64,000 nt of DNA from Desulfobaccales bacterium (GCA_049580385.1 JBAUPV010000030.1:926190-990189), one strand, 5' to 3'. Positions 1,791-22,319 are shown, counted from the first letter of the stretch. Notes: generated from the sequence alone by a model not told the origin. Program-made: numbers and translations.

Positions 1791-3053
1791 TTATTCCACC
1801 GGCAAAGTGAGTACCGGCGTTTGCGATGGGGTAGTCTCGGACATGGCTAAGATTCCTTGTGTGCAGGAGAAAACGACTTTAGACTTATAATCGTTGTCAT
1901 CGATATAGAACCAATGGCCCCCGTATTTTATACTTACGAATGCCCCACGTGGGGGTTCGTTACTACAATTAATTTTTAAATCAATCAACTTTTCTTTCTC
2001 TCCGGCTGGTTTTGCCTTAGTATTTATGTCCTCCTGCGGCACCTGGATTAAATCAGAGAGCACGAGGAGTACTCCCAAAACTGAGCGGGATTGCAGGAAA
2101 ATTTTGTCGCACTTGGGGTCTGGTTGCAGGGGGTATTGGTTGCCATCGATGACTTTATAAACTTCATATCCCCCCAAGGCTTTTTGGAGGCCCTGGGACG
2201 AGGCCCTGGGCCACAGTAGTTCCTTTAAGCGTTTTACGTTGTTTAAATCTGTTTCATTTTTGCCGTTCGTATCTATCACTAAGTAACCAGCAACATCCTT
2301 CTCCTCTTTGATCTTGTCCGTCCCTACCTCAGTCGGCCTCCCCTCGCTTTCCGTCCCCTCCTGCACGGGCGGGGTCATTCCCGGCTCATTCTTCCCCTTC
2401 CCCTGTCTTGCATGCTTCAGGGTAACGGTATATTCTTGCGGCACCTTCGTTACCTTCGCTTCCACCGGTTCCTCGACGCTGATCCGGATGACGCCTTCCC
2501 GCGTGAGCTCATAAAATAGCTGAGCAAACTCAAAAAACCTTTCCTCCGGGTTTCGAAGTTCATTGACGTATTTGACGCAGGCGGGAAAGATGTACTTCGC
2601 AGGCCAGTTGGTCTGGAGACTTTTTAAAATTTTGGGAATAGGTAGAGGCTCGAGCAAGTTTTTTTCTAACGTATCTCCCCTCATGGGGGCATAGGTGATC
2701 GAGGGCTTGTTCGAGTAAGTAGCATAGCCGCCGACTGTGAGCACATTGCGAAATCCGTCCGTCCAAGCAGTTGCCGGGTTCGTCGCATGGAGGGGGTGCC
2801 AGGCTATGGGATAATTGGCGTTTATGTTATTATCCAGCTCATAACTGGTAGTTACGGAGGTCATTTCCAGGGTGGTCAAGGTCTCACCATAGCGTTGCAT
2901 AACCAGATTAGTGAGGAGCTGTTCCTTCCAGGATTTGGAGACGGCCTCCATATAATTTTCCCGGTCCGGGGGGATTTTTCCGGGGGGCATCAGATGAGAG
3001 CAACCGGCGCTGGCAAGGACGATCAGCAGGAGGACGAGTGTCGTTCTCTGCAT
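1791..3053 (-). CDS. hypothetical lipoprotein (two domains joined by a K/E/G/T-rich linker)
   Basis: ORF 1791..3128. The likely start is the internal ATG at 3053, giving MQRTTLVLLLIVLASAGCS with a lipobox (LASAGC). I recognise no family. AT-richer than its surroundings. Confidence 0.7.
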   Translation of the reverse strand: MQRTTLVLLLIVLASAGCSHLMPPGKIPPDRENYMEAVSKSWKEQLLTNLVMQRYGETLTTLEMTSVTTSYELDNNINANYPIAWHPLHATNPATAWTDGFRNVLTVGGYATYSNKPSITYAPMRGDTLEKNLLEPLPIPKILKSLQTNWPAKYIFPACVKYVNELRNPEERFFEFAQLFYELTREGVIRISVEEPVEAKVTKVPQEYTVTLKHARQGKGKNEPGMTPPVQEGTESEGRPTEVGTDKIKEEKDVAGYLVIDTNGKNETDLNNVKRLKELLWPRASSQGLQKALGGYEVYKVIDGNQYPLQPDPKCDKIFLQSRSVLGVLLVLSDLIQVPQEDINTKAKPAGEKEKLIDLKINCSNEPPRGAFVSIKYGGHWFYIDDNDYKSKVVFSCTQGILAMSETTPSQTPVLTLPVE

Positions 3054-3477
3054 ATTGAATGTTTCCTTTCGATTGGGAAAAAAGTGCTGGTCTGCTAAGG
3101 GTCTAAAAGATAAGCGCAAAAATCCCATAGATAATCTAAATTGTCAAGGAGTATTTCCGGCGGGGGCGGGGCCGTTGCCACCTGTTTTTTCTCCAACATG
3201 ATCCTGCTCCCAGATAAGCCAGCCAAAAGTAACTTGCCGCCATGAGCAGTTATTGCTTGGGCCGGCAAAATTTCAGATACGGCCTGGATAAGGCAGTTTT
3301 AGGTTCTCAATGCCAAAGGCATTTGCGCCAATAATTGAGCTTCATCGAAATATTGTTATTTATCAATTCCCCATTTCACCTTTGCTAGAGGGCGTACCTC
3401 TTCCTTGGAAGACAGGCGCTTCATCGATTTGCGGACTATGACCCCCCGGGCCAGCACCGCATGGTAATGGCGCCCAG

Positions 3478-5286
3478 CTATCTACCTCCCGGTCCTGAAT
3501 TATTTATGCTTTCCTTAGGAACATTTTGCTGTTTTGGCTGGATCCGAAAGATTTGAAAACCTGCTCCGGCCAAAAAGACAGGGAGGTTGCGACTCGTATT
3601 AAGGTTATAGTTCTTAGCCGCGTCGGTTAATTTATCCCACTCTACCAGATTGGGGTTTTTCTTTCCCTCATTGTCTCTTGGCCCGTAAGTCCAGCCCTCA
3701 TTTCTACGTTCATTTGACCAGCGCTCATGTTCCATTCTAGCCAATATTTCAATTTCTTCGGGAGTGAACTCGAACAATTCTGCATCCCAGTTGGTTAAAG
3801 GCATTATGTCACAATGAACCGCTATTAGTTTTTTGCCGATATGGTCGGCCTCGCGCCGATTCGATTCTTTGATCTCTTTAGAAAGTTTTTCCCAAGGGCT
3901 TAAAGAGGGATTGGTTTCCGGACTCTCGCCGATATTTGGTTGTTTGAGCACGTAGTCCTGATGCAAAGCCCGAGCCAGCATTTCATTCGTGCTAGTCGAT
4001 AGCAAATCGCTCCATTTGAGGTCAAGCAGCCCAAAGGAGTGGAGATTCGCAAAGCTCCCTCCGGCTTTATCCTCCTCTTGTAATAGCGTTGCCAGCCCTG
4101 CCTTACTGTCCAATTGCACGACAATGGGCACGCTCTCACGTCTTAAGTGTTGAAACAGGGACAGAGCCGCGGCTAGACTGCGGGAATCTTCTTCCAGGCA
4201 GATATAGGCCGAGGTGATAATACAGCGGCCCTCTTCATTCCAAAGAAATTTTGCCTGATCGAACTGAGGTGATTCGGTATCTGAGATTACTGGGATAAGT
4301 TCCCAAGAGTCGTTTAATTGAGGGTATCTCGATAGGAAAAATTCTTTTTTCCGATCCGCATCTTTGTCGACTATGGTAATAGCCAATTTTTTTGTAGATT
4401 TTTCGGGCGAGATTCTCCAAAGCATAGAGGCATGAATTGTCAGACTGGCGCCCATGGGCCCCAGTCCCACAATAAGTAAATGGGATGGAGATTTGCCGGC
4501 GCCTTCACCAAATGGGGGAAATTCCTTAAATAATTTCCGGGCCCCGCTTTCAAATAGGTTAAAAAATGCCAGTCGGTAGGAAGAACCTGTTTGGCTCTTG
4601 ATCTCATATTCTTTGAGCAGGTCACGCAGGTGGGGATCGGTAATGTGCACCAAACCGGTCAATACACTTTTTTGTGCTTCTGAGACCAGGGCCCGGGCAT
4701 TAATGGCAATTTCGGCGTTATCCCCGTCATTATCACATATGGCTACAAGATATTGCGCTTTATGCACCCGCGCCCTTTGTAATAGTTCTCTGTCAGTGGG
4801 ATCGCCCTTTAAAACCAGGATGCCGAGTTCTCGAATTTGCTCCAGGCTGCTGGTATTCTTATCATTTGATATTAGAACTACCTTATAGTTATCTTCATGA
4901 AAAGACCTGGCGCATAATGAGGCTTTATGGCCCATTCCACAAACCACAATGTGGTCATTGGTTAATTGTAATTTTAACCACCGGATTTGTGGCTGGAATA
5001 ATGTTAGACATAACTTTGGTATGCCAACGATTACACCTAAGTTCCATATTAGGTCCCGAATTCCTATCCAAAACCTCTTGTCAGATTCCGGGGAATAATG
5101 AATATTTATTTTATATATTTTGAATGAAATAGGTATTTTGAGAAAAATGATTATTTCGCGAATAATTAAATATAAACTTATTGCCAATATCACCAACACT
5201 ATAAAATCTTGCCAGAAAGGGCGCAGATTTCTTCTCCAGATAGCCCGGATCTTATCTCTCCATCGATCTTTCCCTATTACTTCCAT
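3478..5286 (-). CDS. membrane protein with two TrkA-N-like NAD(P)-binding Rossmann modules and a C-terminal RyR domain
   Basis: 602-aa ORF. The N-terminus has hydrophobic helices (FIVLVILAISLYLII; LIWNLGVIVGIPKLCL). Rossmann signatures: IVVCGMGHKASLCARSF...GDPTD and LLIVGLGPMGASL. The C-terminus MEHERWSNERRNEGWTYGPRDNEGKKNPNLVEWDKLTDAAKNYN fits the RyR-domain consensus (W..GW.YG....k.hP.lv.w..L). Markedly AT-rich codon usage. Confidence 0.8.
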   Translation of the reverse strand: MEVIGKDRWRDKIRAIWRRNLRPFWQDFIVLVILAISLYLIIREIIIFLKIPISFKIYKINIHYSPESDKRFWIGIRDLIWNLGVIVGIPKLCLTLFQPQIRWLKLQLTNDHIVVCGMGHKASLCARSFHEDNYKVVLISNDKNTSSLEQIRELGILVLKGDPTDRELLQRARVHKAQYLVAICDNDGDNAEIAINARALVSEAQKSVLTGLVHITDPHLRDLLKEYEIKSQTGSSYRLAFFNLFESGARKLFKEFPPFGEGAGKSPSHLLIVGLGPMGASLTIHASMLWRISPEKSTKKLAITIVDKDADRKKEFFLSRYPQLNDSWELIPVISDTESPQFDQAKFLWNEEGRCIITSAYICLEEDSRSLAAALSLFQHLRRESVPIVVQLDSKAGLATLLQEEDKAGGSFANLHSFGLLDLKWSDLLSTSTNEMLARALHQDYVLKQPNIGESPETNPSLSPWEKLSKEIKESNRREADHIGKKLIAVHCDIMPLTNWDAELFEFTPEEIEILARMEHERWSNERRNEGWTYGPRDNEGKKNPNLVEWDKLTDAAKNYNLNTSRNLPVFLAGAGFQIFRIQPKQQNVPKESINNSGPGGR

Positions 5287-5485
5287 CAGTCTAGGTATCC
5301 TTTTATTTGCCCGGTCCCGGTTGGCGCCGGTGAGACCCTTTTGCCGAGGTCTCCATACCAGGCATGATCAGTATAGGCCGGGCCTGCCACCTCATAAGAA
5401 CCTTAAGGAGGCGCAAGGGAGCGGGCCTTCCTGATGCGCCCCGGCCCCCGGCCCCCAATGGACAGCCGCAGGCCCCGCGTGGTCT

Positions 5486-6994
5486 TTAGGGCTGCACCAC
5501 CCGAAAATTGGAAAAGGCCACAGTATTCTGCCCCTCCGGCCCCGAATACACTTCAAATCCGATCTGGAAGCTTTTGTCTTCCAGCGGTTGGTCGGGGAAG
5601 GGGAAGTTGGCAACCTCTTTCCCATTTATAAAAATCGTACCCTGGTGGTCTTCGGTGATCAACTCGATCTGGTTCTCGGCCCCTTCCCCCTTCTTGAGAT
5701 TGTCATCCTGTTGCCGGAGGATGGTCGACACGCGGCCATAATTATAAGAACGGACCGAAAACCTGCCGTCGGAGGAAGTCAGGAGGGCATAATAGTCGTT
5801 GTAGTCCTTGGCCCAAAAAGCCAGGCCGGCCCCTTGGGTGGGGTCGCCGGCCTTAACAAAGGTTACGCTGTAGCTGGCCTCCATGTCGTTGGGCAAGTTG
5901 GCGTGGCGGTACAGCTGCATCTCTCTCTTGCCCTTGTCGGGGGTGAAGGTGAGCTTCCCGTCCTTGACGCTTATATCGGTTCTGAGAGGCCCCCAGCTAG
6001 GGGGCCAAATGGTGAACGGGTCCTCGAAAATCACATTGGCGGGCAGGGTCTCTCTTTTTACACCCTCATTCGCCATTTGGAACGAACCCGTGGTTACTTC
6101 TTTTCCAGCGTGTTGCGCAGCTACAGGGTAAATTCCTTGCTTCCAATTTTTGACATTTATAGGCCCAAAAAGTTGAGAATTTCCCGACCCCCCCGTATTG
6201 GTGGGTTTCGCGGGGTAGGCGCCTAAGACGACTTTACCATTGGGTCCGGACACGGTGGCTGTTAGGGGTTCCTTAGCCTGGTAGGGGGTCGATGGAGGTG
6301 GCATATTAGTAAGCTCACACCACACATATTCGGTCCCCGCGGTCGGAAAGCGCTTGTCATAAGTCCGTTCATTCACAGGGGGAGGAGTTTTTCCCGCGGA
6401 GGAAAAGAAACACATTTGGGGTTTCGGGGGCACTATCACCTTAGTCCAGATTACTACCGCTACCAACGCTACCACTACCGCGGCAAGAGAGGCGATGAGC
6501 GCAAAAAATAAAATTCGGGAAGATCTCCAGGTGGTGGTGGTGGCGCCGGCGACGGTGGCGGGTCTTTCATGATGGCGGCGTTTCCAACCTTTTTTGGCTA
6601 AAAGAACAGTTAGGGTATCTGCCAGGCGGGTCAGATGGTCCTCGAGTGGCGGGGTCATGGCATCAAGCCAGTGCGGGGTGCTGATCAAGTACTCCAAAGT
6701 TTTGCTTGGGGCAATATCCTCGGTACGAAAATTGAGCACCGACAGGCCCAAAGAAACCGCCCGTTCCACTTCCCGTTTGATGTGGACCGATTCATTGGAG
6801 TGGGACGAGAAGATCAAGACCAGGGCCTTGGCCTCGTCAATGGCATCAATAATAGCTTCCTCATAGTCCATGCCCGGAAGGGCATCGCGATAATCGATCC
6901 AGCAGCGTATCCCATGGCTTTCCAGGGTGGCCAGCATGGCATTGGCGGTTGTTTGATCCTCATGGGAATAACTGATAAAGACATCGTGGGCCAT
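5486..6994 (-). CDS. TIR-domain single-pass membrane protein with C-terminal extracytoplasmic beta-sandwich-like domain
   Basis: 502-aa ORF. N-terminus MAHDVFISYSHEDQTTANAMLATLESHGIRCWIDYRD...ALVLIFSSHSNESVHIKREVERA is a typical TIR_2-type domain. A basic stretch (KKGWKRRHHER) precedes the TM helix ILFFALIASLAAVVVALVAVVIW. The C-terminal ~170 aa (AGLAFWAKDYNDYYALLTSSDGRFSVRSY...IFINGKEVANF) resemble a DUF1080/LamG-type jelly roll. Confidence 0.85.
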   Translation of the reverse strand: MAHDVFISYSHEDQTTANAMLATLESHGIRCWIDYRDALPGMDYEEAIIDAIDEAKALVLIFSSHSNESVHIKREVERAVSLGLSVLNFRTEDIAPSKTLEYLISTPHWLDAMTPPLEDHLTRLADTLTVLLAKKGWKRRHHERPATVAGATTTTWRSSRILFFALIASLAAVVVALVAVVIWTKVIVPPKPQMCFFSSAGKTPPPVNERTYDKRFPTAGTEYVWCELTNMPPPSTPYQAKEPLTATVSGPNGKVVLGAYPAKPTNTGGSGNSQLFGPINVKNWKQGIYPVAAQHAGKEVTTGSFQMANEGVKRETLPANVIFEDPFTIWPPSWGPLRTDISVKDGKLTFTPDKGKREMQLYRHANLPNDMEASYSVTFVKAGDPTQGAGLAFWAKDYNDYYALLTSSDGRFSVRSYNYGRVSTILRQQDDNLKKGEGAENQIELITEDHQGTIFINGKEVANFPFPDQPLEDKSFQIGFEVYSGPEGQNTVAFSNFRVVQP

Positions 6995-7147
6995 CGGTAC
7001 TTACTCCCGGAAGTTTTTAGAAGCTATTTCCTAGAGATGGTTCTGGAATTACCTTGTCCGGGCGCGCCCGAACCGGATAGATCAAACTTGCCCTTTGGGG
7101 GAGACCCAACTCGTAATTAGACCGACCGGTAAGGACGATACCCAACG

Positions 7148-7459
7148 TTATTGGTCAGGACCGCGCCTTTTTCCTTTCCTCCCGGCTCTGTTAGGGGAGG
7201 GCGGTTCGATGCGGTATCCCCAGCCGAGAATGGTCTGAAGGGTGGCCAGAGAGGTTCTCCGATCATATTCCTTCTCCGAATCCGGCAGGTCTTGATAAGG
7301 AACCAGGCATGGGTGTTCCTTTTTCCGGTCATCCCGTTCCGGTCCATAGCGCCACCCTTCCGCCAGGCGTTGTGCAGCCCAGGCTTTATGGGTGTTCTCA
7401 GCCAGTTTTTCCACGAGTTCCAGGAGAGCCGCAGGAATCTTTTCTTTGGCGTCGTTCAT
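7148..7459 (-). CDS. stand-alone RyR-domain protein
   Basis: 103-aa ORF. LAENTHKAWAAQRLAEGWRYGPERDDRKKEHPCLVPYQDLPDSEKEYDRRTSLATLQTILGWGYRI matches the RyR-domain consensus almost residue for residue. Basic C-terminal tail. Confidence 0.85.
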   Translation of the reverse strand: MNDAKEKIPAALLELVEKLAENTHKAWAAQRLAEGWRYGPERDDRKKEHPCLVPYQDLPDSEKEYDRRTSLATLQTILGWGYRIEPPSPNRAGRKGKRRGPDQ

Positions 7460-8076
7460 CGCTTTTTACCCGGAAATATTCTCCCCCTGACCAATCGGTT
7501 GGGATTGGAAGCAACAAAACAAAAAGAGAGCCGCCATTCTCGGAGATAATGCTTTTAGGTAATTATTACTTTGATAAGAGTCAAGATTTTGGTCATCGAG
7601 GTGCCGCTGTCTTCGGCGTCCGCGGGGGCCTTCGGTGTAAAATATCTGCGACGGGTGATTGGCGGCCGGGGGATAAGAGTCCCGGCCCAAAATTCTGAGA
7701 TTAATAATCTTTAAGAAAATTTGTGCTATCATGGCGTCGACGAGATGATTCGGATTCAAGAACAGAAATTTTGGTGGTTTTTCCGGGCAGGAGGTTCCAA
7801 AAACCTTTGTTGGATTGCGGTGGCTAAGGCTGCTGCATAATTTCGGTCCAAACCACTTTTGGATAGAAGCGGGAAATGCAGCCCCTAATGTCGCTTATGC
7901 CTAAATCAAAGGAGAATCGGTGCAACTGCTGTAGCCCGACCCATCGATCTTAAAGGGTTCACCTGGTATGGGAATGTCCAAGACATCATCACGAACTGGT
8001 CCCAACAATTCGTACAAATCGCCAACCGGCGGCCGGGGGAGATCGTCAGGCCTGCCAGCACTTTTAGCTTAAAACC

Positions 8077-9921
8077 ATGGTAAATGCCAACAAACAGGAT
8101 TTTGAGGACGCCCGGCGAGGTTTCATCGCCCCGCTGCTGGACGATGGAGTGATCCGCAATCAGGAAGGCAAGCCGGTCTGGGATATGAGCGGCTTCTCGT
8201 TTATCAAGGAAGGCGCCGCCGCCCCTGAGACCGTCAACCCCAGCCTTTGGCGCCAGTCGCAGCTCCTGACCAACGCCGGGTTGTTTAAGGTGATTGACCG
8301 GGTCTATCAGGTGCGGGGCGCTGACCTCTCCAATATCACCTTCATCGAAGCCGACACAGGTATAATTGTGGTGGATCCCTTGATTTCCATGGAATGTGCA
8401 AAGGCCGCCATCGATCTCTACTATCAGCATCGGCCCAAGAAGCCAGTGATGGCGGTGATCTATACCCACAGCCACGTGGACCACTACGGCGGTGTCAAGG
8501 GCGTGGTCTCCGAGGATGACGTCGAGGCCGGCAAGATCAAGGTCATCGCGCCCGAAGGCTTCCTCAAGGCTGCCCTGGATGAAAACGTAATGGCCGGGAC
8601 GGCTATGGCCCGCCGGGCAGGATACATGTATGGAGTCTTCCTACCACCGGGGCCCCAGGGGAAGGTGACCGTGGGCCTGGGCCTTACGATGTCCACCGGC
8701 ACTGTTACCCTGATCCCGCCCACGGAGGTGGTCACCAACTCCGGCCAGGAAATCATCCTCGATGGCCTCAAATTCGTCTTCCAACTGGCCCCGGACACCG
8801 AAGCCCCGGCTGAGATGCATTTCTATCTGCCGCAGCTCAAGCTGCTCTGCCCGGCGGAAAACTGCTGCCACAACCTGCACAATCTCTATACCCTGCGGGG
8901 AGCTAAGACCCGCGACGCCCTGGCCTGGTCCAAGGCCCTCAACGAGACCCTGGAGCGCTGGGGCGACCAAATTGAGGTCATGCTGAACGTCCATCACTGG
9001 CCCGTCTGGGGCCGGGAGCGCCTCGTCGACCGCCTCAAAAAACAGCGGGACATGTACCGCTACCTCCACGATCAGACCCTGCGATTGGCCAACCAGGGCT
9101 TCACAATGGTGGAGATCGCCGAAATGGTCCACCTGCCCGAGAGCCTGGCCAAGGAGGGGTACGCCCGGGGCTATTACGGGACGGTAAACCATAACGTCAA
9201 GGGAGTGTACATCAAGTACCTGGGCTGGTTCGACGGCAACCCCGCCAACCTGCACCCCCTGCCACCGGTGGAGGCCAGCAAGCGGTATGTGGAGTTCATG
9301 GGTGGCGCGGAAGCGGTTCTGGCCAAGGCCCGCAAGTATTTTGATAAAGGGGAGTATCGCTGGGTGGCCCAGGTAGTGAACCACGTGGTCTTTGCCGACC
9401 CCACGAATGTCAAGGCCCGGGAGTTCCAGGCCAAGGCCCTGGAGCAATTGGGGTACCAGGCCGAATCGGGCCCCTGGCGCAACTTTTATCTCACTGGGGC
9501 TCAGGAACTGCGCCACGGTATAGCCAGGGAGGATGCGGGCACCACGGCCAGCCCCGATACCATCCGGGCCATGCCCCTGGGACTGTTTTTCGACTACCTG
9601 GGCGTCCGGCTCAACGGCCCCAAGGCGGAGGGCAAGACCATCACCATCAACTGGAACTTCACCGACACCAAGGAGCAGTATGTCCTGGCCCTGGAAAATG
9701 GCGCCTTGAATAACACAGCCAACAAACAGGCGAAAGAGGCGGACGCTTCCGTGACCCTGACCCGGGCGGCGTTTGGCGAAGCCATCATGGGTGGCCAACC
9801 AAAGCTCCAAGCCAAAATTGCTGCGGGGGACATCAAGATCGAAGGGAAAATGGAGAAGCTGGGGGAGTTGCTGTCCCTCATGGATAACTTCGATCCCTGG
9901 TTTAATATCGTCACGCCATAA
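8077..9921 (+). CDS. alkyl/aryl-sulfatase of the MBL-fold SdsA1/BDS1 family (MBL + dimerisation + SCP2-like C-terminus)
   Basis: 614-aa ORF. Family hallmarks: DFEDARRGFIA, VNPSLWRQSQL, VYQVRG and the metal motif THSHVDHYGG. An in-frame TAG lies 12 nt upstream of the ATG, so no signal peptide is encoded. Confidence 0.85.
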   Translation: MVNANKQDFEDARRGFIAPLLDDGVIRNQEGKPVWDMSGFSFIKEGAAAPETVNPSLWRQSQLLTNAGLFKVIDRVYQVRGADLSNITFIEADTGIIVVDPLISMECAKAAIDLYYQHRPKKPVMAVIYTHSHVDHYGGVKGVVSEDDVEAGKIKVIAPEGFLKAALDENVMAGTAMARRAGYMYGVFLPPGPQGKVTVGLGLTMSTGTVTLIPPTEVVTNSGQEIILDGLKFVFQLAPDTEAPAEMHFYLPQLKLLCPAENCCHNLHNLYTLRGAKTRDALAWSKALNETLERWGDQIEVMLNVHHWPVWGRERLVDRLKKQRDMYRYLHDQTLRLANQGFTMVEIAEMVHLPESLAKEGYARGYYGTVNHNVKGVYIKYLGWFDGNPANLHPLPPVEASKRYVEFMGGAEAVLAKARKYFDKGEYRWVAQVVNHVVFADPTNVKAREFQAKALEQLGYQAESGPWRNFYLTGAQELRHGIAREDAGTTASPDTIRAMPLGLFFDYLGVRLNGPKAEGKTITINWNFTDTKEQYVLALENGALNNTANKQAKEADASVTLTRAAFGEAIMGGQPKLQAKIAAGDIKIEGKMEKLGELLSLMDNFDPWFNIVTP

Positions 9922-10276
9922 CGACTTCGGAGCCATGAGATGACCGCGCCGCCGGAAATTTGGGCCACCAAAGTGACCGGATTGTTGAAGGGAGATCCGG
10001 GCTATGAGATGGCGGTAGCTTACAGCAAAGCGGTAAAAAGTCCTTGCATATCCCGCAGTTGTCCTTGGGTTATATCCTCAGCAAGACCAAACCCCGGCTC
10101 GGGGTGGCCGCTCATTTTACGGCCAACCCGGAAAACCTCAAACCCGCGCTTGACGATACTGGCAAGGAGTCCATGGATTTCCTTGATAAAATCTTATGTT
10201 CCACTAGGCCAGTTGACTTTCGAACCCGGTGGGTTAGTGCCAGTCAATAATGATTACCTGAAAGGAGTCTTTCATT

Positions 10277-12672
10277 ATGGATAGACCGCGCCCCGAATGG
10301 CAATTAATGGTTAAGGTTGCTTTAACCGGTCTGACCCTGGCCCTGGTATTGGCCTTCGGCAGCCAGGCAGCTAGGGCCCAGGAGTCCAAAGATAAGTGGC
10401 CCAAACGGTTCGAGGCCCCCAAAGGCGTCGTGGTCATGTACCAACCTCAGCTCGAGGATTTTAAGGGCGACGTCCTTACCGGCCGGGCCGCGGTCTCGGT
10501 GCAGAAAAAGGAATGGAAAGAGCCGGTGTTCGGCGCCGTCTGGCTCTCCGGCCGCGTCCTCACCGACCGGGATACCCGCATGGCCACCATTACCGAGGTC
10601 AAAGTTACCGACGCCAGGTTTCCCCAGGCCAAGCCGGAGCAGGTGGAGAAGCTTAAGACCTTTTTGAACGATCAGATGCAGAATTGGAACATTCCCATCG
10701 GTCTGGACCGGCTGCTGGCCGCCCTGGAAGTGGTGCAGAAGGAACAGGCCGGAGACCGGGGTTTAAACAACGAGCCGCCCCAGATCATCTTTGTCAGCCA
10801 CCCCGCGGTGCTGGTACCCCTGGACGGCGACCCCAAGCTGCTGCCGCTGCCCAAATCCTCCCTCATGAGGGTGGCGAACACGCCTTTTATCATGCTCTAT
10901 GATCCCAAGGCCAAGATCTATTACCTGAAGGGCGGGGAGACCTGGCTGGCCGCTGCCGATCTCAAGGGCCCCTTTAAGGGCGTGGACCGGCCGCCGGAGT
11001 CGATAACCGCCTGGGAGGCCGAGGCCGCTAAAGCCAGCCAGGGCCAGGAAGGCCCCCAAAAGGTGGAAGCCAAGGCCGGCAAGATGCCGGAAGTCATCGT
11101 CAGCACGGTGCCGGCAGAGCTGCTGGCGACCGACGGGGAGCCCCAATACACCCCCATTAAAGATACCAACCTTCTTTACGTGAGCAATACCGAGAGCAGT
11201 ATCTTCCTGGATACCGCCACCCAGGATTACTTCGCCATCATCTCGGGCCGCTGGTTCCAGACCAAGTCCCTGGCCAATGGACCCTGGGCCTATGTGGCCC
11301 CCGATAAACTTCCCGGGGATTTTGCCCGAATTCCGGAAAATTCGGCCAAGGGCTATGTCCTGGTGAGCGTGGGGGGCACCCCCCAGGCCAAGGAGGCGGT
11401 CCTGGACAACTCCATTCCCCAGACCGCCATCATTGACCGGAAAAAAGCCGCTATTCAGGTAGAGTATGCCGGGGATCCCAATTTTGAGAGGATTGGCGAC
11501 ACCAACCTGGAGTATGCCGTAAATACCGGCAGGACTGTGTTAAAAGCAGGAACCAAATATTTTGTCGTGGACCAGGGGGTTTGGTACGAGGCCGGCTCTC
11601 CTAAAGGTCCCTGGACGGTATCGGTGCAGCCGCCTCAGGAAGTGGACAAGATCCTCCCCAGCAACCCCTGCTACAGCGCCAAGTACGTAAAGGTCTATGA
11701 GTCCACGGATGATACGGTCACCGTAGGCTACACCCCCGGCTATACCGGCTCCTACGTGGACAGCGGCACGGTGGTTTACGGCACCGGCTACAATTACCCG
11801 GGTTATGCTACCCCGGATGCCTATATTCCACCCCCGGCTACTTATGGATACGCCGCGGCTTACGACCCTTACGCCGAACCTGGGGGTACCAAACCCCTTA
11901 TTATAATCCGGCCAGTTGGCTCGTCCCCGGGCTTATCGGCTTTGCCGCGGGCATGGCGGTGGGCGCGGTCACCAGTCCCTGGTGGGGCCATAGTTACGGT
12001 TATTGGGGCGGCGGCTGGTGGGGACATGGCGGCTATAACAACATCAATATCAATAATATCCAAAATAATGTGATCAACTGGCATCCCCACGGCGGGCCCA
12101 TCCATGGCCGGCCCATCATCCATCCGGTGACCGGTCCGGCGAACCGGCCGAACCTCTATAATCGGCCCGGGAACGAGAAGCGGCTGGCCTCCCGGCCCAC
12201 CACCCTGCCCGCGGGCCAGGCGGGACGCCCCGGCGGGCCGGCAAAGCCGGGGCCAGGGGGCCCATTGGCTGGGAAGCCCGCCACCTTGCCCGCCGGCAGG
12301 CCTGCCGCCAAACCGGCTCAGCCCAAAGTCCGGCCGGCGGGGGGCCGGGACAACGTTCTGGCCGGTAAAAACGGCAATGTCTACAAGCGGGACAATCAAG
12401 GCAACTGGCAGGAACGCCGGGGAAATCAGTGGGCCAAACCCGGAGCCGCGGCTCCCCGTCCCGGCCAGGCCCCGGCCCGCCCGGCAACCCGGCCCAGCCC
12501 CGATTTCGGCCAGTTGAACCGGGACTTCGCTGCCCGCCAGCGCGGCGATACGCGCGTCCAGAACTTCCAGCGGGCCAATCCGGCCCCCCGTCCCAGCGGC
12601 GGCGGCCGGCCTGCCGGGGGTGGCGGCATCAGTCGATCCTCGGGTGGAGGGCGCGGCGGCAGGCGGCGGTAG
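10277..12672 (+). pseudogene. secreted Tyr/Gly/Pro-rich protein with apparent single-base frameshift near 11879-11887 (or an assembly error)
   Basis: ORF 10277..12073 has a signal peptide (LTLALVLAFGSQAARAQES). After ...YGYAAAYDPYAEPGG its tail becomes implausible. The -1 frame continues naturally as WGYQTPYYNPASWLVPGLIGFAAGMAVGAVTSPWWGHSYGYWGGGWW... and is the ORF 11953..12672, which ends in a G/R/P-rich tail. The switch maps to a G5 run at 11882-11886. Confidence 0.55.
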
Positions 12673-12944
12673 TCCCCAGCCTCAGCACCATAGACGGCTG
12701 GTGGCTGGAAGGCCACATCGAGAACTTCACCGGTTGGGCCATCGGCGTGGGGGCACCTGCTGGTCTTCAGTATTCTGACGACGCCGATTGCCTCTACGGC
12801 AAACTCGAAAAGGTGATAATCCCCAGATATTATCGGGAGCGCTCGTTCTTCGTGCACGCCATGGACGGCGCTATTGCCCTGAACGGGTCCGTCTTTAAGA
12901 CCCAGCAAATGTTGCAGCAGTATGCAGTAAGGGCGTACCTCTGA
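12673..12944 (+). pseudogene. C-terminal remnant (~90 aa) of an alpha-glucan (glycogen/maltodextrin) phosphorylase
   Basis: The translation SLSTIDGWWLEGHIENFTGWAIG...DDADCLYGKLEKVIIPRYYRERSFFVHAMDGAIALNGSVFKTQQMLQQYAVRAYL* matches the conserved C-terminus of GlgP-family alpha-glucan phosphorylases (DGWW.EG...GWAIG...DA..LY..LE..i.P.fY). No upstream part of the gene is present. Confidence 0.7.
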
Positions 12945-13130
12945 GAACAGCTGGTTATACATGGAGCGGCACAGTCGTCACTCCCCTTTCACCTCCCATA
13001 AACAATGGCAGGTCTCCCTCGTTCTCCCAACCCTCTCCGACTGGAAATGGAAATAATTTTCAAAAAGAACTTGCCTACCCGGCGGCTTTGAGTCCACAAT
13101 ACTGAAATTTTTAGCGGGAGAAGGCGCCGC

Positions 13131-14471
13131 ATGCGGAGGTTCCTCTTTTGCCTGCTGTTGATTCTGGCGACGCCGGCCTGGGCCCAGCCTCCGGCGGGGG
13201 CCCCGAAAAGTCTGCTCACTCTGGAGGAGGCCGTCAACACTGCCTTGCAAGAAAACCGGCAGGTGCAGAATGCCACCCTGGAGGTCTCGAAGTCGGAGCA
13301 TATGCTGGCCGCGGTGCGTACCCACCGCTGGCCCATTTTCGAGGTGGTAGCGGCGGAAGACTGGCTGCTGACGCCCCTGGAGAATTTCAACGCCCTCGGC
13401 AGCCTTCCGGGCCTGCTGCCCATTCCCATTCCCGTTTCCACTCCCACCAGTCTGATCAAGAGCCAGCAGCCCACGGCCTATATTGCCGGTTTAATGGCCC
13501 AGCCCCTCAGCCAGCAGTACCGCATCGGCCTCAACATCTCCATGCACAACGTCATGCGGGAGATTGCCTGGGAGGAACTGCGGGCCAAACGCCAGGCCGT
13601 GGTCAATGATGTGAAGCGGGTCTATTTCAGCATTCTCCAGACCCAGAGTTCCCTGGAGAGCGTGGAGGAAAACATCCGCTTTCTGCGGGAACTGGACCGC
13701 CTCACGGGCCACCGTCTCAAGCAAGAGGCGGTGCTCAAGTCCCAAAGTCTGGAGGTGAAGGCCCGCCTGGCCCAGACGGCGCAGGATCAGATAGTGTTGC
13801 ATAACAATCTCGCCACCCAGAAAGAGCAGCTCAACGACCTGATGGGCCGCAATATCCTCACCGAGTTTCGCGTCAACCCGGTGCCCGAGGCCACGTCCCT
13901 GGAAAACGACCTGGAAGGGGCCCGGACCCGGGCCTTACAGCAGCGGCCGGAGATCCGGGAGGCGAGGCTGAGGACCAAACAGGCGGAATACGACCGCTGG
14001 ATCAAGCAGGCGGAATATATCCCCGATATCAGCTTTACCGTGTCATATGCCAAGACCGTCAACCTGTCGCCGCTGCCGGATAATCTCGGTTTTGCCGGGT
14101 TCATGCTGACCTGGGAGCCCTTCGACTGGGGTCGCAAGCGCCAGGAACTGGATGCCAAGACCGCCACCCTGGCCCAGACCAAAAATACCAGCCAGGAAAC
14201 CGAATCTAAGGTGCTCATCGACGTGGACAGCAAATTCCGCTCGCTCCAGGCCAGCCGGGGGCAGTTACTGGCTAGCCGGGCGGCCCAGGAAGCGGCCCTG
14301 GAAAAGCTCAAGGAAACCATGGACGACTTCAAGAACGACACCGTCCTCCTCAAGGACGTGCTCGAGGCCCAGACCCATCTGGCCCAGGCCGATAGCGAGT
14401 ATCAAAAGGCCCTGTCCGGCGTCTGGACGGATAAGGCCGCCTTCGAAAAGGCCACGGGGGAAGAGAAATGA
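13131..14471 (+). CDS. TolC-family outer-membrane efflux protein
   Basis: 446-aa ORF. Signal peptide MRRFLFCLLLILATPAWA. LTLEEAVNTALQENRQVQ and the two-repeat coiled-coil architecture are typical of the OEP family. ATGA overlap with the next gene. Confidence 0.85.
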   Translation: MRRFLFCLLLILATPAWAQPPAGAPKSLLTLEEAVNTALQENRQVQNATLEVSKSEHMLAAVRTHRWPIFEVVAAEDWLLTPLENFNALGSLPGLLPIPIPVSTPTSLIKSQQPTAYIAGLMAQPLSQQYRIGLNISMHNVMREIAWEELRAKRQAVVNDVKRVYFSILQTQSSLESVEENIRFLRELDRLTGHRLKQEAVLKSQSLEVKARLAQTAQDQIVLHNNLATQKEQLNDLMGRNILTEFRVNPVPEATSLENDLEGARTRALQQRPEIREARLRTKQAEYDRWIKQAEYIPDISFTVSYAKTVNLSPLPDNLGFAGFMLTWEPFDWGRKRQELDAKTATLAQTKNTSQETESKVLIDVDSKFRSLQASRGQLLASRAAQEAALEKLKETMDDFKNDTVLLKDVLEAQTHLAQADSEYQKALSGVWTDKAAFEKATGEEK

Positions 14472-15604
14472 GGCCCTTAAAATTTTTGGGGACCGCCCTG
14501 GTCTGGGTGCTCCTGGCCGCTGGCTGCGGTCAGGCGGAAAAACCGGCGCCGCCGCCTACCCCGGTGGGGGTCCGGGCCGCCGAGACCTACCAGGGAGGCG
14601 GCGAGGTCCGCTATTCCGCCAACATCCAGCCCTACGCCCAGGTGGACCTGGCCTTCAAGTCGGGGGGCTATCTCACCGGCATCTTCCGGGTCCGGGGGGT
14701 GGACGGCAAGCTGCGCAACGTCCAGGGCGGCGACTACGTGAAGCGGGGCGCGGTGCTGGCCCAGGTGCGCCTGAGCGACTACCAGGCCAAACTGAGCCAG
14801 GCCGCCGGCCTGTTGGCCTCGTCCCGGGCCGCCTTGGAGCACGCGGAACTGGACTTGGGGCGGGCCCAAGCCCTTTATGCCGCCAACAGCATGACGAAAT
14901 CCGACTACGACAAGGCCATGGCCAGGTATGGCGAAGCCGCGGGCAGCGTCGCCTCCAACTCAGCCCAGGTCCAGGAGGCCGGGATCGCCATGGAGGACAC
15001 CGCCCTGAAGGCCCCCACCGCCTCCCTGGTGCTCAAACGCAAGGTCGAGGTGGGCGACCTGGTCAACCAGGGTACGGTGGGCTTCACCCTGGCCAACACC
15101 GAAGAGGTCAAGGTGGTCTTTGGCATCTCCGACCTGATGCTCAAACACCTGAAGCTCGGCGATCGCCTGGACGTCACCACTGAGGCCCTGCGCGGCCGCG
15201 TCTTCCGCGGCCAGGTGACCGCCATTTCGCCCTCCGCCGACCCCAAAAGCCGGGTCTTCGACGTGGAGATCACCATCCCCAACCCCGAGCAGGAACTGAA
15301 GGTGGGCATGATCGCGGCGGTGGCGGTGGCCACCGGCCAGGCCCCCGCCAACCTCACCGTGGTGCCGCTGACCGCCATCATCCGCTCCAAGACCAACCCT
15401 GAGGGCTACGCCCTCTTTGTGGTGGAGGAGCAGAAGGGCCGCCAGGTGGCCCGCCTGCGAGACAACATCAAATTAGGCGAGGTTTACGGCAACATGATCG
15501 CCGTCACCCGGGGCGTCAAGATCGGCGATCCGGTGATCATCACCGGCGCCACCCTGGTCACCAACGGCCAACCGGTGCGCATCATCCCCCCGCCGGAGCG
15601 GTGA
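14468..15604 (+). CDS. efflux RND periplasmic adaptor (membrane fusion protein, HlyD family)
   Basis: 378-aa ORF. Lipoprotein-like N-terminus (LLAAGCGQ). It has the typical MFP barrel-sandwich/hairpin layout, e.g. GAVLAQVRLSDYQAKLSQAAG...LDLGRAQALY. Confidence 0.85.
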   Translation: MRPLKFLGTALVWVLLAAGCGQAEKPAPPPTPVGVRAAETYQGGGEVRYSANIQPYAQVDLAFKSGGYLTGIFRVRGVDGKLRNVQGGDYVKRGAVLAQVRLSDYQAKLSQAAGLLASSRAALEHAELDLGRAQALYAANSMTKSDYDKAMARYGEAAGSVASNSAQVQEAGIAMEDTALKAPTASLVLKRKVEVGDLVNQGTVGFTLANTEEVKVVFGISDLMLKHLKLGDRLDVTTEALRGRVFRGQVTAISPSADPKSRVFDVEITIPNPEQELKVGMIAAVAVATGQAPANLTVVPLTAIIRSKTNPEGYALFVVEEQKGRQVARLRDNIKLGEVYGNMIAVTRGVKIGDPVIITGATLVTNGQPVRIIPPPER

Positions 15605-15624
15605 GGGCTAAGCATAGGCGCTCT

Positions 15625-15766
15625 CGTTCCCAAGCTCCTGCTCGGGAACGCATATTGGACGCCAAGCTCCAGCTTGGCGAGAGGAGAGTCACCTTTATGG
15701 TTACTGGCATTTAAGCGAAGCAGAGCTTCGCACCCAAGCGGGTTCCCAAGCTGGAGCTTGGGAACC
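15625..15766. repeat. cluster of four GC-rich hairpin repeats between the MFP and RND genes
   Basis: Palindromes: cgttcccaagctcctgctcgggaacg (15625-15650), cgccaagctccagcttggcg (15660-15679), gcgaagcagagcttcgc (15715-15731) and ggttcccaagctggagcttgggaacc (15741-15766). The ttcccaagc/gcttgggaa arms recur at 60548-60570 and 60657-60679. Confidence 0.8.
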
Positions 15767-15840
15767 AGACTTAAATAAATTATCTTTTCAAACAGTCACT
15801 TAGTGTCCCACGCCCTAATAATGGCCTGTAGGACGCGCCC

Positions 15841-15905
15841 AATAGAAAATAGAAAACCGAAAACAAATATCTGGCTACTGGCTACTGACTACTGGCAACT
15901 GACCA
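15841..15905 (+). repeat. two adjacent degenerate heptanucleotide tandem tracts ending at the RND start codon
   Basis: First tract: aatagaa aatagaa aaccgaa aacaaat. Then 'at'. Second tract: ctggcta ctggcta ctgacta ctggcaa ctgacca. The final 'a' of the second tract is the A of ATG 15905. Confidence 0.8.
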
Positions 15906-18900
15906 TGGCGCCTCGCAAGACTGACGACGAATACATCCAGAAGGTCCACAACACGGCCCGCTTCTTTGTGGAGCATCCGCAAATTTCCTGGGTCTTGCTG
16001 ATCGCGGTGTTGTTATGGGGCTACTTCGGCTATACGGGCATGCCCCAGCGCAAAGACCCGGATATCCCGGTGCGCCAAGCTCAGATCATCTGCCCTTGGC
16101 CGGGGATGGTCACCGACAAGGTCGAGCAGCTCGTCACCCGCAAGATCGAACTGAAGGTCGCCGAAAACACCCACCTCAAGAAGATCGAGTCCACCTCCCG
16201 GGTGGGCGTCTCCGTGATCACGGTGGAGCTGGACGAGAAGGTGGAGGACACCGGCAAGCAGTTCGACGACATCAAGTACCGCCTGGACTCCATCCACGAC
16301 CTGCCGCAGGGGGCCGGCCCCATCCAGTTTCTCAAGGACTATGGCGACACCGCCGCCCTGATGTTGACCGTAGCCAGCCCCAAGGTGGGCGCGGTGGAGA
16401 TTGGGCTCCGGGCCCGGGATATGGAAAAGGCCATTGCCCAGGTGCGGCGGCAGGCCGGGGCCGGGCCGGAGGCGCCTCGAGTCACCCTGGTCTTCGGCTT
16501 CCCCATCTCCATCAGTCCCAAGATGGTCCATCCGCCCGTGGACCTGTTCGCGGCGTATATCCAAAAGGCGGGCCTGGCTCGGGACGTGCGCCTCATTGAA
16601 GGCCCGGGGTTCATCGGCGTAGATGCCGCCACCAAGGCCAGCAACGACCAGATCATGGCCGTTCTCAACCGTTTCATCCGGGAGCGGCTGCGGGCCTCGG
16701 AGGTGAACCCCGAGGTCTGGGAGCCGGTGCTCATCCGGGACCCAGGCCAGACTGCCGCGGTTCTGGCGCAGCATCCCGGCGACAAGTACAGCTACCGGGA
16801 AATGGACCATTTCACCAAGCTCATCGAGCGCACCCTGCTGGGCGTGACCGTGGCCCTGGACAAGACGCCCATCGTCACCAAGGTGAGCCGCAGCGGCGTC
16901 CTGGATGAGGCCATCTGGCTGGAATACTCCCAGGAGCGTCTGGCCTCCTACGGCGGCAACGTCACCCAGTTGCCGGATATCCTCAACGCCCGCAACATTG
17001 CGGTCCCCGGCGGCGTCCTGGAAGTGGAAGGCAAGGACGTGACGGTGGTGCCTTCCGGGGAGTTCCAGAGCGAAAAGGAGATCGGCGACGTCATGGTGGC
17101 GGCCACCGCCAAGGAGGTGCCGGTCTATCTGAGGGACATGGTGGACGTGGTGAGGGGCTACGAAAGCCCCCCCCGGTTCCTGAATTTTTTTTACTGGCGG
17201 GACGCCCAGGGCAAGTGGCAACGCTCCCGGGCCATTACCCTGGCGGTGCAGATGCGGGCCGGGGAGAAGATCGGCGAGTTCGGCCAGGCCGTGGACGGGG
17301 CGCTCTCCAACCTGAAAAAGATCCTGCCGGAAGACCTGATCATGGTGCGGACCTCGGACCAGCCGCAGCAGGTCAAGGAAAATATCGACCTGTTCATGAA
17401 GAGTCTCTATGAGGCCATCTTCCTGGTGGTTCTGGTCTCCTGGATCGGTTTCTGGGGCTGGCGCTCGGCCCTGCTCATGGCCTTTTCCATCCCCCTGACC
17501 CTGACCATGACCTTCGGGATGATGTATTTCCTGGGGATCGATCTGCAGCAGGTCTCCATTGCCGCGCTGATCATCGCCCTGGGGCTCCTGGTGGATGACC
17601 CCGTGGTGGCGGGGGACGCCATCAAACGGGAACTGGGCCGGGGGCAGAAATCCCTGGTGGCGGCCTGGCTGGGACCCACCAAGCTGGCCACCGCCATCGT
17701 CTTTGCCACCATCACCAATATCGTGGCCTATCTGCCTTTCCTGATGGTGGGGGGCGACACCGGGCGCTTCATCTATTCCCTGCCAGTAGTCATGGCCTGC
17801 GCCCTGGTGTCCTCGCGCATCGTCTCCATGACCTTTATCCCCTTCCTGGGCTATTACCTGCTGCGGTCCCCCAAGGTTCTGGAGGCGCCCATCGCTGAGC
17901 GGCGCCAGCACGGCTTTTTGGGGCTTTATTATCAGTTCGGCCGCCAGGTCATCGAACATCGCTGGCGGTTTATGGCCGGCTCCCTGGTCTTTCTGGGCCT
18001 AGGCGCCTTGGCCATGTGGAAGCTCGATACCGCCTTTTTTCCCAAGGACCTGTCGTATCTCTCTTACGTGGACGTCTGGCTGCCGGAGGATGCCCCGTTG
18101 TCCGCTACGGATGCAACGGCGCGCCAGGTCGAAGCCATCGTGGGGAAAGTGTCCGCGGAGTATGGCAAAGAACATCCGGGGCCGGACGGCAAGCCCCGGG
18201 AGGTGCTGAAGTGCCTCACCTCCTTTGTCGGCGGCGGCGGACCGCGGTTCTGGTTCTCCGTGTCCCCCGAAGCCCAGCAGAACAACTACGCCCAAATCGT
18301 CATCCAGGTCAAGGACAAACATGACACCAACCACCTGGTGGACCCCTGGCAGCAGGCCCTGCTGCGGGCCATCCCCGGGGCCCGGGTGGACGTCAGGCAA
18401 TTGGATACCGGCACGCCCATCAAATTTCCGGTCTCCATCCGTCTCGCCGGCGAAGACGCCCGCACCTTGCGGCAACTGGCCGGCGAGGTGGAAAAGATCT
18501 ACCGCTCCACGCCCCTGGCGGCGCGCTATCGGGATGATTGGGGCTCGGAAAATCTGGTGGCCCTGATCAAGGTCGATCCGGACCGGGCCAACCTGGCCGG
18601 GGTCACCAACTATGACGTGGCCGCGGCCTCGGCGGTGGGCATGAACGGCTACCAGGTGGGGACGCTCAGGGAAGGCGACAAACAGATTCCCATCATGGCC
18701 CGCCTGGTCATGGAGGAGCGGGCCCGGCTGGCTGACCTCTCCAATCTCTACGTCTATTCTTCCCAGGGGTCTCAGAAGGTCCCCTTGGGGTTGATCTCGA
18801 GCCTGGAATACCACATGGAGACCGAGAAGATTCAGCGCCGCCAGCAATTTCGCACCATTGAAGTCTCTTGTTTCCCGGTGCCCGGGGCCTTGGCCTCTCA

Positions 18901-19546
18901 GGTACTGAACGCCATCCGCCCACAGTTAGCGCAGTTTTCCCAAACCCTGCCCCCCGGCTATAGTATGCAGATCGGCGGCGAGCAGGAGGAGCAGGAAAAG
19001 GGCTTCCACGACCTGACCATCGTCCTGTTGATCTCCATCATCTGCATCTACCTGGCCTTGGTGATCCAGTTCAAGAACGCCATTAAACCCTTCATCGTCT
19101 TTGCCACCATCCCCTACGGCATGGTGGGGGCCTTGATCGCCCTGCTGTGCATGGGCCAGCCCTTCGGTTTCATGGCCTTTTTGGGCATCGTCAGCCTGGT
19201 GGGGGTGATCGTCAGCCACGTCATCGTGCTCTTCGACTTTATCGAAGAAAAACATGCCGCGGGCGAGCCTCTGGAAGAGGCGGTGCTGGACGCCGGCATC
19301 ATCCGCCTGCGGCCGGTGATGATCACCGTGGGCGCCACGATCTTCGGGCTCATCCCCCTGGCCCTGCACGGCGGGCCGCTTTGGGAGCCCTTGTGCTACG
19401 CCCAGATCGGCGGCCTGCTGGTGGCCACCCTGATCACCCTGCTCCTGGTGCCGGTATTTTACAGCATCTTCGTGTTGGACCTGAAGATCGTCACCTGGGA
19501 CACCAGCCAGAAGCCTGTGGTGGAAGGTGAAGTGCGGGGAAGTTAG
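15905..19546 (+). CDS. RND efflux transporter permease (AcrB/HAE family), long form (~1213 aa)
   Basis: ORF 15803..19546. The N-terminal 34 codons read through repeat DNA. The sensible start is ATG 15905 ([39 protein letters not shown]...PQRKDPDIP). It has the 12-TM RND layout with two large periplasmic loops. Confidence 0.9.
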   Translation: [1213 protein letters not shown]

Positions 19547-19653
19547 GCGAGAAGGGTTGGGACAAGTCCCTAAAGATCGGCGTGACCAAAAACGGCTGGC
19601 GATTGGGCTAAATTTTAATAACCATTAACCATTAAGTCTATGAGGTGGCTAAC

Positions 19654-22266: not shown

Positions 22267-22281
22267 TAAAAAATACCTACG

Positions 22282-22319
22282 GGCGCCTGCGCCAGGGGCG
22301 CCCCCCTGGCGCAGGCGCC
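22282..22319 (+). terminator. perfect 17-bp GC hairpin just after the arylsulfatase stop (no U-tract)
   Basis: ggcgcctgcgccagggg cgcc cccctggcgcaggcgcc. It may terminate or stabilise the transcript. The missing T-run lowers confidence in intrinsic termination. Confidence 0.4.

Follow-up and report, generated by a model that had tools for sequence, protein, structure and literature searches.

The described systems closest to the locus reported here are those of Thoeris, in which a TIR protein makes a signal and an effector reads it. The systematic Thoeris survey of Yirmiya et al. (bioRxiv 2025, 10.64898/2025.12.03.692087) distinguishes 29 putative types, including a type X with an ion-channel effector. 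A second related case is RyDEP (gp78 of mycobacteriophage DyoEdafos), a phage protein of the RyR family PF02026 and a homodimeric glycosidase that converts 2′cADPR and 3′cADPR, isomers of cyclic ADP-ribose (cADPR), to ADP-ribose (ADPR), with H75 and D117 as the catalytic dyad, W78 stacking on the adenine and H100 contacting the phosphates. In the crystal structure of RyDEP the pocket holds linear ADPR, the fold of RyDEP matches the R12 domain of animal ryanodine receptors, and six of eight phage homologues bind 2′/3′cADPR, two of which were characterised in detail and have nanomolar affinity, in a study that covers viral proteins only (Lopez Rivera et al., bioRxiv May 2026, PMC13232231). We describe here a cluster of three minus-strand genes in a 64,000-nucleotide stretch (hereafter the window; GCA_049580385.1 JBAUPV010000030.1:926190-990189) of a Desulfobaccales metagenome-assembled genome, which encodes a small standalone RyR protein, a transmembrane TIR protein and a membrane protein carrying TrkA_N and RyR domains (TrkA_N-RyR), and which is probably an undescribed bacterial signalling system echoing the animal link between cADPR and the ryanodine receptor.

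The original prediction, made from the window sequence, had proposed that the two RyR proteins read the output of the TIR domain, and had started from the premise that no function is assigned to RyR domains in prokaryotes. This premise is outdated, since phage PF02026 proteins bind or hydrolyse 2′/3′cADPR, and the inference of a TIR/RyR pairing is thereby strengthened, not weakened (PMC13232231). Its statement that no described system is known to have this composition agrees with our literature searches, which found no account of cellular TIR plus RyR gene clusters.

In common with Thoeris, especially type X (TIR plus the ion channel ThsK) and type II (TIR plus Macro-TM), the cluster has a TIR with the catalytic Glu adjoining a membrane protein with a nucleotide-binding module, and by analogy it may follow the same logic of signal maker and signal reader. 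It differs from Thoeris in that the predicted sensor is an RyR/R12 domain, a domain not named among the survey effectors in the main text and in the parts of the supplement considered here; in that the TIR is, as modelled, a transmembrane receptor with an extracellular lectin domain, whereas ThsB is cytosolic; and in the presence of a third gene for a putative signal degrader. As for the features by which Thoeris is recognised, the catalytic-Glu TIR is present, and the candidate effector is adjacent and conserved, with cADPR-isomer binding by RyR known only from the phage homologues (PMC13232231), but the cluster lies in no defence island and in no catalogued family: PADLOC gave only generic TIR matches for the TIR protein and none for the small RyR or TrkA_N-RyR protein, neither of which has a PADLOC model. 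Neither RyR nor TrkA is among the effector labels of the survey's main text and supplement parts, and the matches to 'ryr' and 'trka' in these supplement parts are only letter runs within amino-acid sequences (10.64898/2025.12.03.692087). Identity of TrkA_N-RyR with the type X effector ThsK is unlikely, as the type X ThsB of Table S1 of the survey has no BLAST similarity to any TIR of this study, the comparison being of ThsB and not of the ThsK sequence itself. What is new relative to Thoeris-like TIR signalling is the predicted sensor domain, the built-in candidate signal degrader and the transmembrane TIR with a receptor-type ectodomain.

Domain composition of the three-gene cluster

The three open reading frames were found at the predicted positions (7148-7459, 5486-6994 and 3478-5286), separated by 153 and 199 nucleotides where gaps of 150-200 had been claimed, and the Pfam search proposed with the prediction identified RyR, TIR_2 and TrkA_N on the three proteins. 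The features are, with positions counted from the first letter of the window:

7148..7459, minus strand: small standalone RyR protein, predicted cADPR-isomer binder or glycosidase, that is, a signal damper
6590..6994, minus strand: cytoplasmic TIR domain (residues 1-135 of the TIR protein), TIR_2 Pfam match
6437..6517, minus strand: transmembrane helix of the TIR protein (residues ~160-186; AlphaFold helix 160-186)
5495..6418, minus strand: Ig-like beta-sandwich (residues 193-308) and ConA-like/CBM66-like lectin domain (321-500) of the TIR protein, together its extracytoplasmic sensor region
3478..5286, minus strand: TrkA_N-RyR protein, 602 amino acids, predicted signal receptor and membrane effector
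~4999-5208, minus strand: filterless hairpin of two transmembrane helices (2-TM) of TrkA_N-RyR
~4537-4959, minus strand: RCK/Rossmann domain 1 of TrkA_N-RyR
~4027-4494, minus strand: RCK/Rossmann domain 2 of TrkA_N-RyR
~3532-3990, minus strand: tandem RyR repeat module (R12-like) of TrkA_N-RyR

The small RyR protein (103 amino acids) is the bare RyR domain that had been claimed (PF02026, E 5.6e-29), and aligns to the Bacteroides thetaiotaomicron RyR protein 3NRT (E 6e-27) and to the R12 repeats of RyR1-3. Its residues H24, W27, H49 and D66 correspond in the alignment, with identical spacing, to H75, W78, H100 and D117 of RyDEP, the numbering being transferred by this spacing and via other phage RyR proteins and not by a direct alignment with gp78. 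The H/W/H/D set is kept in all cluster-linked small RyR proteins (four other clusters), in the phage RyR proteins and in the B. thetaiotaomicron RyR, and 232 phage records match the core of the small RyR at 40-55% identity. The small RyR is thus like RyDEP in family, similar in size and in the H/W/H/D residues; unlike the phage-encoded RyDEP, it is chromosomal and host-encoded, stands near ribF/nusA-type genes and adjoins the very TIR that it would antagonise, a position that would imply self-regulation rather than immune evasion.

For the TrkA_N-RyR protein, Pfam identified TrkA_N (PF02254, E 2.2e-16, residues 113-206) and RyR (E 1.7e-17, residues 512-579). A protein identical to it at 100% (P0121) carries an NCBI annotation to a Desulfobaccales metagenome-assembled genome, on a contig of ~1 Mb. 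The AlphaFold model (pLDDT 83.8, pTM 0.74) begins with two long helices, continues with two Rossmann/RCK domains and ends in a helical module, so that the two Rossmann modules of the original prediction, of which Pfam recognises one, are both present, each with GxGxxG/A; these glycines and an acidic residue are conserved in both domains. The predicted C-terminal RyR domain was also found, but as a tandem pair like human RyR3 Repeat12 and not as a single domain, and the RyR hidden Markov model (HMM) matches twice in each TrkA_N-RyR protein. By Foldseek, the best matches were the tandem-RCK K+ channel GsuK (E 3e-11) and the TrkA gating ring, both at about 1e-10 to 1e-11, and the C-terminus matched human RyR3 Repeat12 with dantrolene/adenine nucleotides (E ~4e-7, TM-score 0.54-0.58, ~185 columns).

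With GsuK, MthK, Kch and the TrkA ring the protein shares tandem RCK/Rossmann domains after a 2-TM region; unlike these channels, 77 of the 78 members of the TrkA_N-RyR family are filterless, and an R12 module is added. The K+ selectivity filter (TVGYG) is absent from the window protein, which is accordingly rejected as a canonical K+ channel, and only one of the 78 homologues (P0158) keeps a selectivity filter, TIGYGD. The family therefore derives from channels, although the protein of the window does not form a canonical K+ pore. With animal R12 it shares the tandem RyR-repeat module, Asn in place of the RyDEP Asp (as in both RyR2 repeats) and a channel-derived membrane part, whereas the animal ryanodine receptor is a six-helix Ca2+ release channel and TrkA_N-RyR a filterless 2-TM hairpin with RCK domains. 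The two repeats of TrkA_N-RyR carry H/Y/N/N and H/W/N/N, that is, Asn at the positions of RyDEP His100 and Asp117 in both; a similar pattern is seen in mammalian RyR2 R12, where both repeats carry Asn in place of the Asp and repeat 2 carries it also in place of the His. Judged from these residue sets, the two RyR proteins seem to divide the work between them, the small RyR being a possible enzyme or sponge and TrkA_N-RyR a receptor.

The TIR protein (502 amino acids) carries the claimed N-terminal TIR domain (TIR_2 PF13676, E 1.1e-18, residues 5-112), and the Glu proposed at the catalytic position of NADase TIRs was located as E75 (codon at 6770-6772) in HIKREVERA, where it aligns with the Glu of WPQKEL in PdTIR (3h16) and with the corresponding Glu of TIR-STING 6wt6, and is invariant in the family alignment A4 (24 sequences). 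The domain belongs to a very large family in which a TIR and a transmembrane helix are followed by a variable C-terminal domain (TPR, PDZ, WD40, PPC or DUF1080). The basic stretch KKGWKRRHHERP, read from the sequence, precedes the transmembrane helix, so that under the positive-inside rule an N-in topology would be expected. The ~300-residue C-terminal domain of the original prediction is present and can be refined into two domains, an Ig-like beta-sandwich followed by a CBM66/ConA-like lectin. The latter gives a weak Pfam match to 3keto-disac_hyd/DUF1080 (residues 336-499) and is modelled by AlphaFold as a jelly-roll (residues 321-500, pLDDT ~90), for which the best compact Foldseek match was CBM66 4b1m (TM-score 0.73, rmsd 2.8 Å), followed by galectins and BoNT Hc; the ectodomain thus has the beta-jelly-roll fold of ConA-like lectins and CBM66, and carbohydrate binding is predicted from the model. 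The layout of the modelled protein is Toll-like, with a lectin outside, one transmembrane helix and a TIR inside.

A comparison between the window and the related locus L002 indicates that this ectodomain is hypervariable. Nucleotide identity is 95-98% for the small RyR gene, the TIR domain (97% identical to its L002 orthologue), the TrkA_N-RyR gene and a downstream lipoprotein-like gene, and within the cluster it drops, to 65-83%, only over ~5490-6650, the part of the TIR gene after the TIR domain. The dN/dS ratios of window versus L002, determined by the Nei-Gojobori method, are:

Small RyR: 0.22
TIR domain: 0.28 (dN 0.015)
TIR linker plus transmembrane helix: 0.94
Ectodomain 1: 1.46 (dN 0.40)
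Ectodomain 2: 1.11
TrkA_N-RyR: 0.41
Lipoprotein: 0.58

The dN of the ectodomain is about 25 times that of the TIR domain, and such variability is expected of a receptor facing a variable external partner, whichever its cause.

Linkage of TIR and TrkA_N-RyR genes across genomes

Co-occurrence of the genes outside this genome had been set as the key test by the original prediction, and it was observed. A total of 58 loci with TrkA_N-RyR relatives were collected from genomes and metagenomes using the closer alignment A2, a collection that leans towards relatives sharing two conserved peptides, and further contexts were added later. The loci were scanned with local HMMs and by an iterative six-frame TIR search, since the first TIR HMM had missed a small ThsB-like TIR, and key genes were checked in Pfam; lineages were dereplicated at 80% identity and counted when at least 10 kb of flank was available. 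A canonical TIR was found within 10 kb in 11 of the 19 TrkA_N-RyR lineages, one of the 11 depending on the joining of L022 and L023, two contigs of the same metagenome-assembled genome with a 565-bp overlap at only 95% identity. In three further lineages the neighbour is TIR-like, either DUF4062-WD40 or a TPR protein that matches TIR_2 weakly. No TIR was detected in ~160 kb of control sequence, consisting of the rest of the window and the loci with only a small RyR. That the linked TIRs lie close by, share the orientation and are not orthologous strengthens this contrast.

The linked TIRs are mostly co-directional with TrkA_N-RyR and belong to non-orthologous proteins (TIR-lectin, TIR-PDZ, TIR-TPR and TIR-only), and the Glu at the catalytic position is kept in 13 of 13. 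The window arrangement is preserved in the near-identical contig L001 and in a relative (L002-L007), the upstream neighbours differing between contigs, and a TIR accompanies TrkA_N-RyR also in Thermodesulfovibrionia, Gemmatimonadota, Syntrophomonadaceae and other taxa. The arrangements include:

RyR / TIR-lectin / TrkA_N-RyR: window, L001-L007
RyR / TrkA_N-RyR / 169-residue TIR-only protein: L029-L033, L010
TIR-PDZ / TrkA_N-RyR / RyR: contig of P0200
L012: TIR and TPR near TrkA_N-RyR
L013 (Thermodesulfovibrionia): co-directional RyR, SLATT, TrkA_N-RyR, CysQ-like phosphatase, RelA_SpoT-TPR-S-SLOG-RyR, NUDIX and TIR
L014 (Gemmatimonadota): two TIRs near TrkA_N-RyR
L022, L044, L047: TIR near TrkA_N-RyR
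L040: TIR-PQQ near TrkA_N-RyR
L052: kinase-TIR, on the other strand and at a greater distance from TrkA_N-RyR
L073: TIR-TPR with patatin, PLD and a standalone SLOG protein

The three gene orders, the non-orthologous TIRs and the invariant catalytic Glu support, at the level of sequence, the predicted functional pairing of TIR and RyR. The adjacency does not extend to small RyR genes in general: three of three independently sampled small-RyR contexts are without a TIR, and a general link between small RyR and TIR was rejected. Standalone small RyR genes of this kind (L069:7001-7288, L070:7001-7279 and L072:7001-10336), which have the RyDEP-type residues and are widespread in bacteria, lie for example between a BON/hibernation-factor gene and the nuo operon (atp/nuo), upstream of nrdD, and by an AbiE toxin-antitoxin pair plus AAA-RyR. 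The TIR link is specific to clusters with TrkA_N-RyR (and RelA_SpoT-SLOG-RyR), and is a property neither of all RyR nor of all TIR genes.

The small TIR-only gene that follows TrkA_N-RyR has an intact frame in L033 (6574-6996), but in four other assemblies of this lineage (L029-L032; L029:12535-12964) an additional C in a poly-C tract (C7 to C8) shifts the frame, which could reflect an assembly error, a pseudogene or phase variation.

The wider clusters add further nucleotide-signalling parts, namely RelA_SpoT-TPR-S-SLOG-RyR, NUDIX, SLATT, standalone SLOG, patatin and PLD, and some of their neighbours resemble the PADLOC candidate defence families PDC-S33, PDC-S07, DolB and PDC-M37B. A protein of ~850 residues with RelA_SpoT synthetase, TPR-S, SLOG (LSDAT_prok) and RyR domains recurs by TrkA_N-RyR in several phyla (L013:8114-16854; also L014, L021, L022, L042-L044 and L057), usually together with a NUDIX hydrolase of ~140 residues and sometimes with SLATT, a CysQ-like phosphatase or a ClpB-like AAA+ protein. 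These clusters look like a more extensive nucleotide-signalling system centred on RyR, which the window does not contain. In pairing TrkA_N-RyR with SLOG and NUDIX they recall TRPM2, which fuses the same set of ADPR-sensing and ADPR-degrading domains; the SLOG and NUDIX components are absent from the window. DUF4062 fused to WD40 or to STAND-TPR recurs beside RyR genes that have no canonical TIR neighbour (L026:884-5089, L037:1499-3889 and L057:7607-9964), and this TIR-like domain may replace TIR in such clusters.

Proposed mechanism and competing explanations

From the domains, folds, residues, genetic linkage and ectodomain hypervariability observed, we infer every biochemical step of the following scheme. 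Outside the cell, ligand-driven clustering of the lectin-type ectodomains would activate the cytoplasmic TIR, the possible triggers being a phage or other surface threat, kin recognition or an envelope glycan. With its Glu in place, the TIR would, as judged from its family, make from NAD+ a signal of the ADPR type (a cADPR isomer, or ADPR itself), which would bind to the R12-like tandem RyR module of TrkA_N-RyR, as its fold, residues and linkage suggest; the H/W/N/N pockets of this module look like binding rather than catalytic sites, and the binding would alter ion flux or membrane integrity. The small RyR with its full H/W/H/D set would hydrolyse or sequester the signal, and so set a threshold or reset the system, in analogy to the ring nucleases of type III CRISPR. 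In our estimate there is an even chance that the cluster is such a nucleotide-signalling module, Thoeris-like and made of three components, with RyR domains as the readers of what the TIR produces.

Several observations weigh against this scheme. Five of the 19 lineages are without a TIR or TIR-like gene in the available sequence, the background control is small, most relatives of the TIR-helix-variable-domain type are without an RyR neighbour (for instance P0003, the 48%-identical TIR orthologue in L008), and small RyR genes that stand alone are very common, with more than 1,100 clusters, and occur in unrelated contexts. A location in a defence island was not borne out, the neighbours of the cluster being housekeeping and transport genes (alkyl sulfatase, RND efflux pump, sulfatase, ribF, nusA, infB and pnp). 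In the ectodomain dS is elevated as well as dN, and therefore allele or cassette exchange, not positive selection, may explain part of the variability. The TrkA_N-RyR of the window is filterless, and its membrane output is therefore not indicated by a K+ pore; as RyR3 R12 binds also ATP, ADP and AMP-PCP (PDB titles), its ligand could be an ordinary adenine nucleotide. Some phage homologues with the conserved residues bound signals without cleaving them, and therefore the sequence of the small RyR does not separate a hydrolase from a sponge (PMC13232231).

If the TIR were an NAD+-depleting effector without a second messenger, TrkA_N-RyR could sense the fall of NAD(H) and the rise of ADPR through its Rossmann sites and R12 pocket and adjust ion homeostasis, with the small RyR buffering ADPR. 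Many bacterial TIRs are indeed plain NADases, both Rossmann motifs (GxGxxG/A plus acidic residue) are conserved, GsuK, the best structural match, was solved with NAD and with ADP, and the ligand in the RyDEP crystal was linear ADPR. We consider this explanation unlikely nevertheless, because a sensor of bulk NAD+ need not adjoin a TIR gene, because the small RyR keeps a glycosidase dyad that is meaningful only for ribose-ribose-linked cADPR isomers, and because the wider clusters hold SLOG, SLATT and NUDIX, as is typical of systems that work through a messenger. The ATP, ADP and AMP-PCP bound by RyR3 R12 bear also on a different explanation, in which the two RyR proteins form a housekeeping module of ion homeostasis under the control of ATP/ADP and the TIRs are independent surface receptors that share a variable region with them but are not coupled to them. 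The housekeeping genes around the window locus, the small RyR genes beside atp/nuo, nrdD and other housekeeping genes, and the five lineages without TIR would fit such a module; it leaves unaccounted for, however, the independent TIR architectures located between or directly beside two RyR genes, co-directionally and in three orders, and the 13 TIR genes near TrkA_N-RyR against none in the ~160-kb control, and appears to us quite improbable. Chance, or synteny inherited within one bacterial order without functional meaning, might be suspected from the gaps of 150-200 nucleotides, the differences in GC content and the finding of the exact window arrangement only in Desulfobaccales relatives with ~95% nucleotide identity, but the association is seen again in at least six other taxa, where both the TIRs and the order of the genes differ, by which this explanation is largely excluded and can be given very little credence.

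Within the preferred scheme of a TIR signal read by RyR domains, a narrower and more tentative proposal is that the cluster is a prokaryotic counterpart of the animal cADPR-RyR axis, in which a cyclic ADPR isomer made by the TIR would directly gate an R12 channel-derived protein and a RyDEP-like glycosidase would act as the off-switch; we hold it to be possible, with the balance of probability somewhat against it. If true, R12 would be an ancient receptor for the products of TIRs and cyclases. If the preferred scheme as a whole is right, RyR/R12 would join SLOG, Macro, SAVED and related domains as a class of domains sensing TIR signals, on the host side as well as in phage counter-defence. The cluster would be a first case of a bacterium encoding a RyDEP-like regulator beside its own TIR, as a built-in damper, and it would show a Toll-like layout of variable extracellular lectin, transmembrane helix and cytoplasmic TIR, with an ectodomain evolving like immune receptors. 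It would also offer a tractable bacterial system for the long-standing and disputed question of a direct action of cADPR on the R12 of ryanodine receptors; to our knowledge, direct binding of cADPR to R12 is unproven in animals. Beyond the window, the clusters with RelA_SpoT-SLOG-RyR, NUDIX and SLATT suggest that environmental bacteria have a more extensive and unexplored nucleotide network built around RyR.

Surroundings of the cluster

The claimed differences in base composition were confirmed, the TrkA_N-RyR gene having a GC content of ~0.45, the TIR and small RyR genes one of ~0.55 and the flanks one of ~0.6. The AT-richness of the TrkA_N-RyR gene is marked (GC 0.38-0.49, against 0.55 for the TIR gene and ~0.6 for the surrounding genome) and would fit an origin of part of the cluster by horizontal transfer. 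No mobile-element gene was identified by Pfam among the neighbour genes of the cluster. The conservation of the two intergenic gaps reflects genomes that are ~95% related, and the gaps gave no match in Rfam; a structured RNA or riboswitch in the gaps was rejected, as their folding is no better than that of shuffled sequence (z -0.9 and -1.2). A scan for promoters and terminators gave counts no higher than in shuffled sequence and is uninformative on an operon.

One further gene may belong to the cluster:

1791..3128, minus strand: downstream lipoprotein-like gene, 420-445 amino acids, possible accessory of uncertain membership

Its likely start is an internal Met at 3053, with the lipobox LASAGC, and it has no match in Pfam or PADLOC. 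In each of the two Desulfobaccales lineages (L001-L007; L029-L033) it is conserved immediately downstream of TrkA_N-RyR, and it is absent from the P0200 contig and from the other phyla. A local divergence dip at 2151-2300 corresponds to a low-complexity linker.

At the other end of the cluster, the small RyR gene of L002 directly abuts ribF, and relative to L002 the window has ~15 kb of extra genes between these two (7600-22800), encoding an alkyl sulfatase, an unknown protein of 598 residues, an OEP/HlyD/AcrB efflux pump and a sulfatase. Sulfatase genes are found at the same junction in L001, and the cluster boundary appears to be a variable insertion point. The minus-strand region 3-1469 of the window is very GC-rich (up to 0.70) and repetitive, with long overlapping open reading frames in several frames; its orthologue in L002 encodes a pentapeptide-repeat protein of 518 residues, to which identity falls to 51-75%, and it represents a second fast-diverging gene near the cluster.

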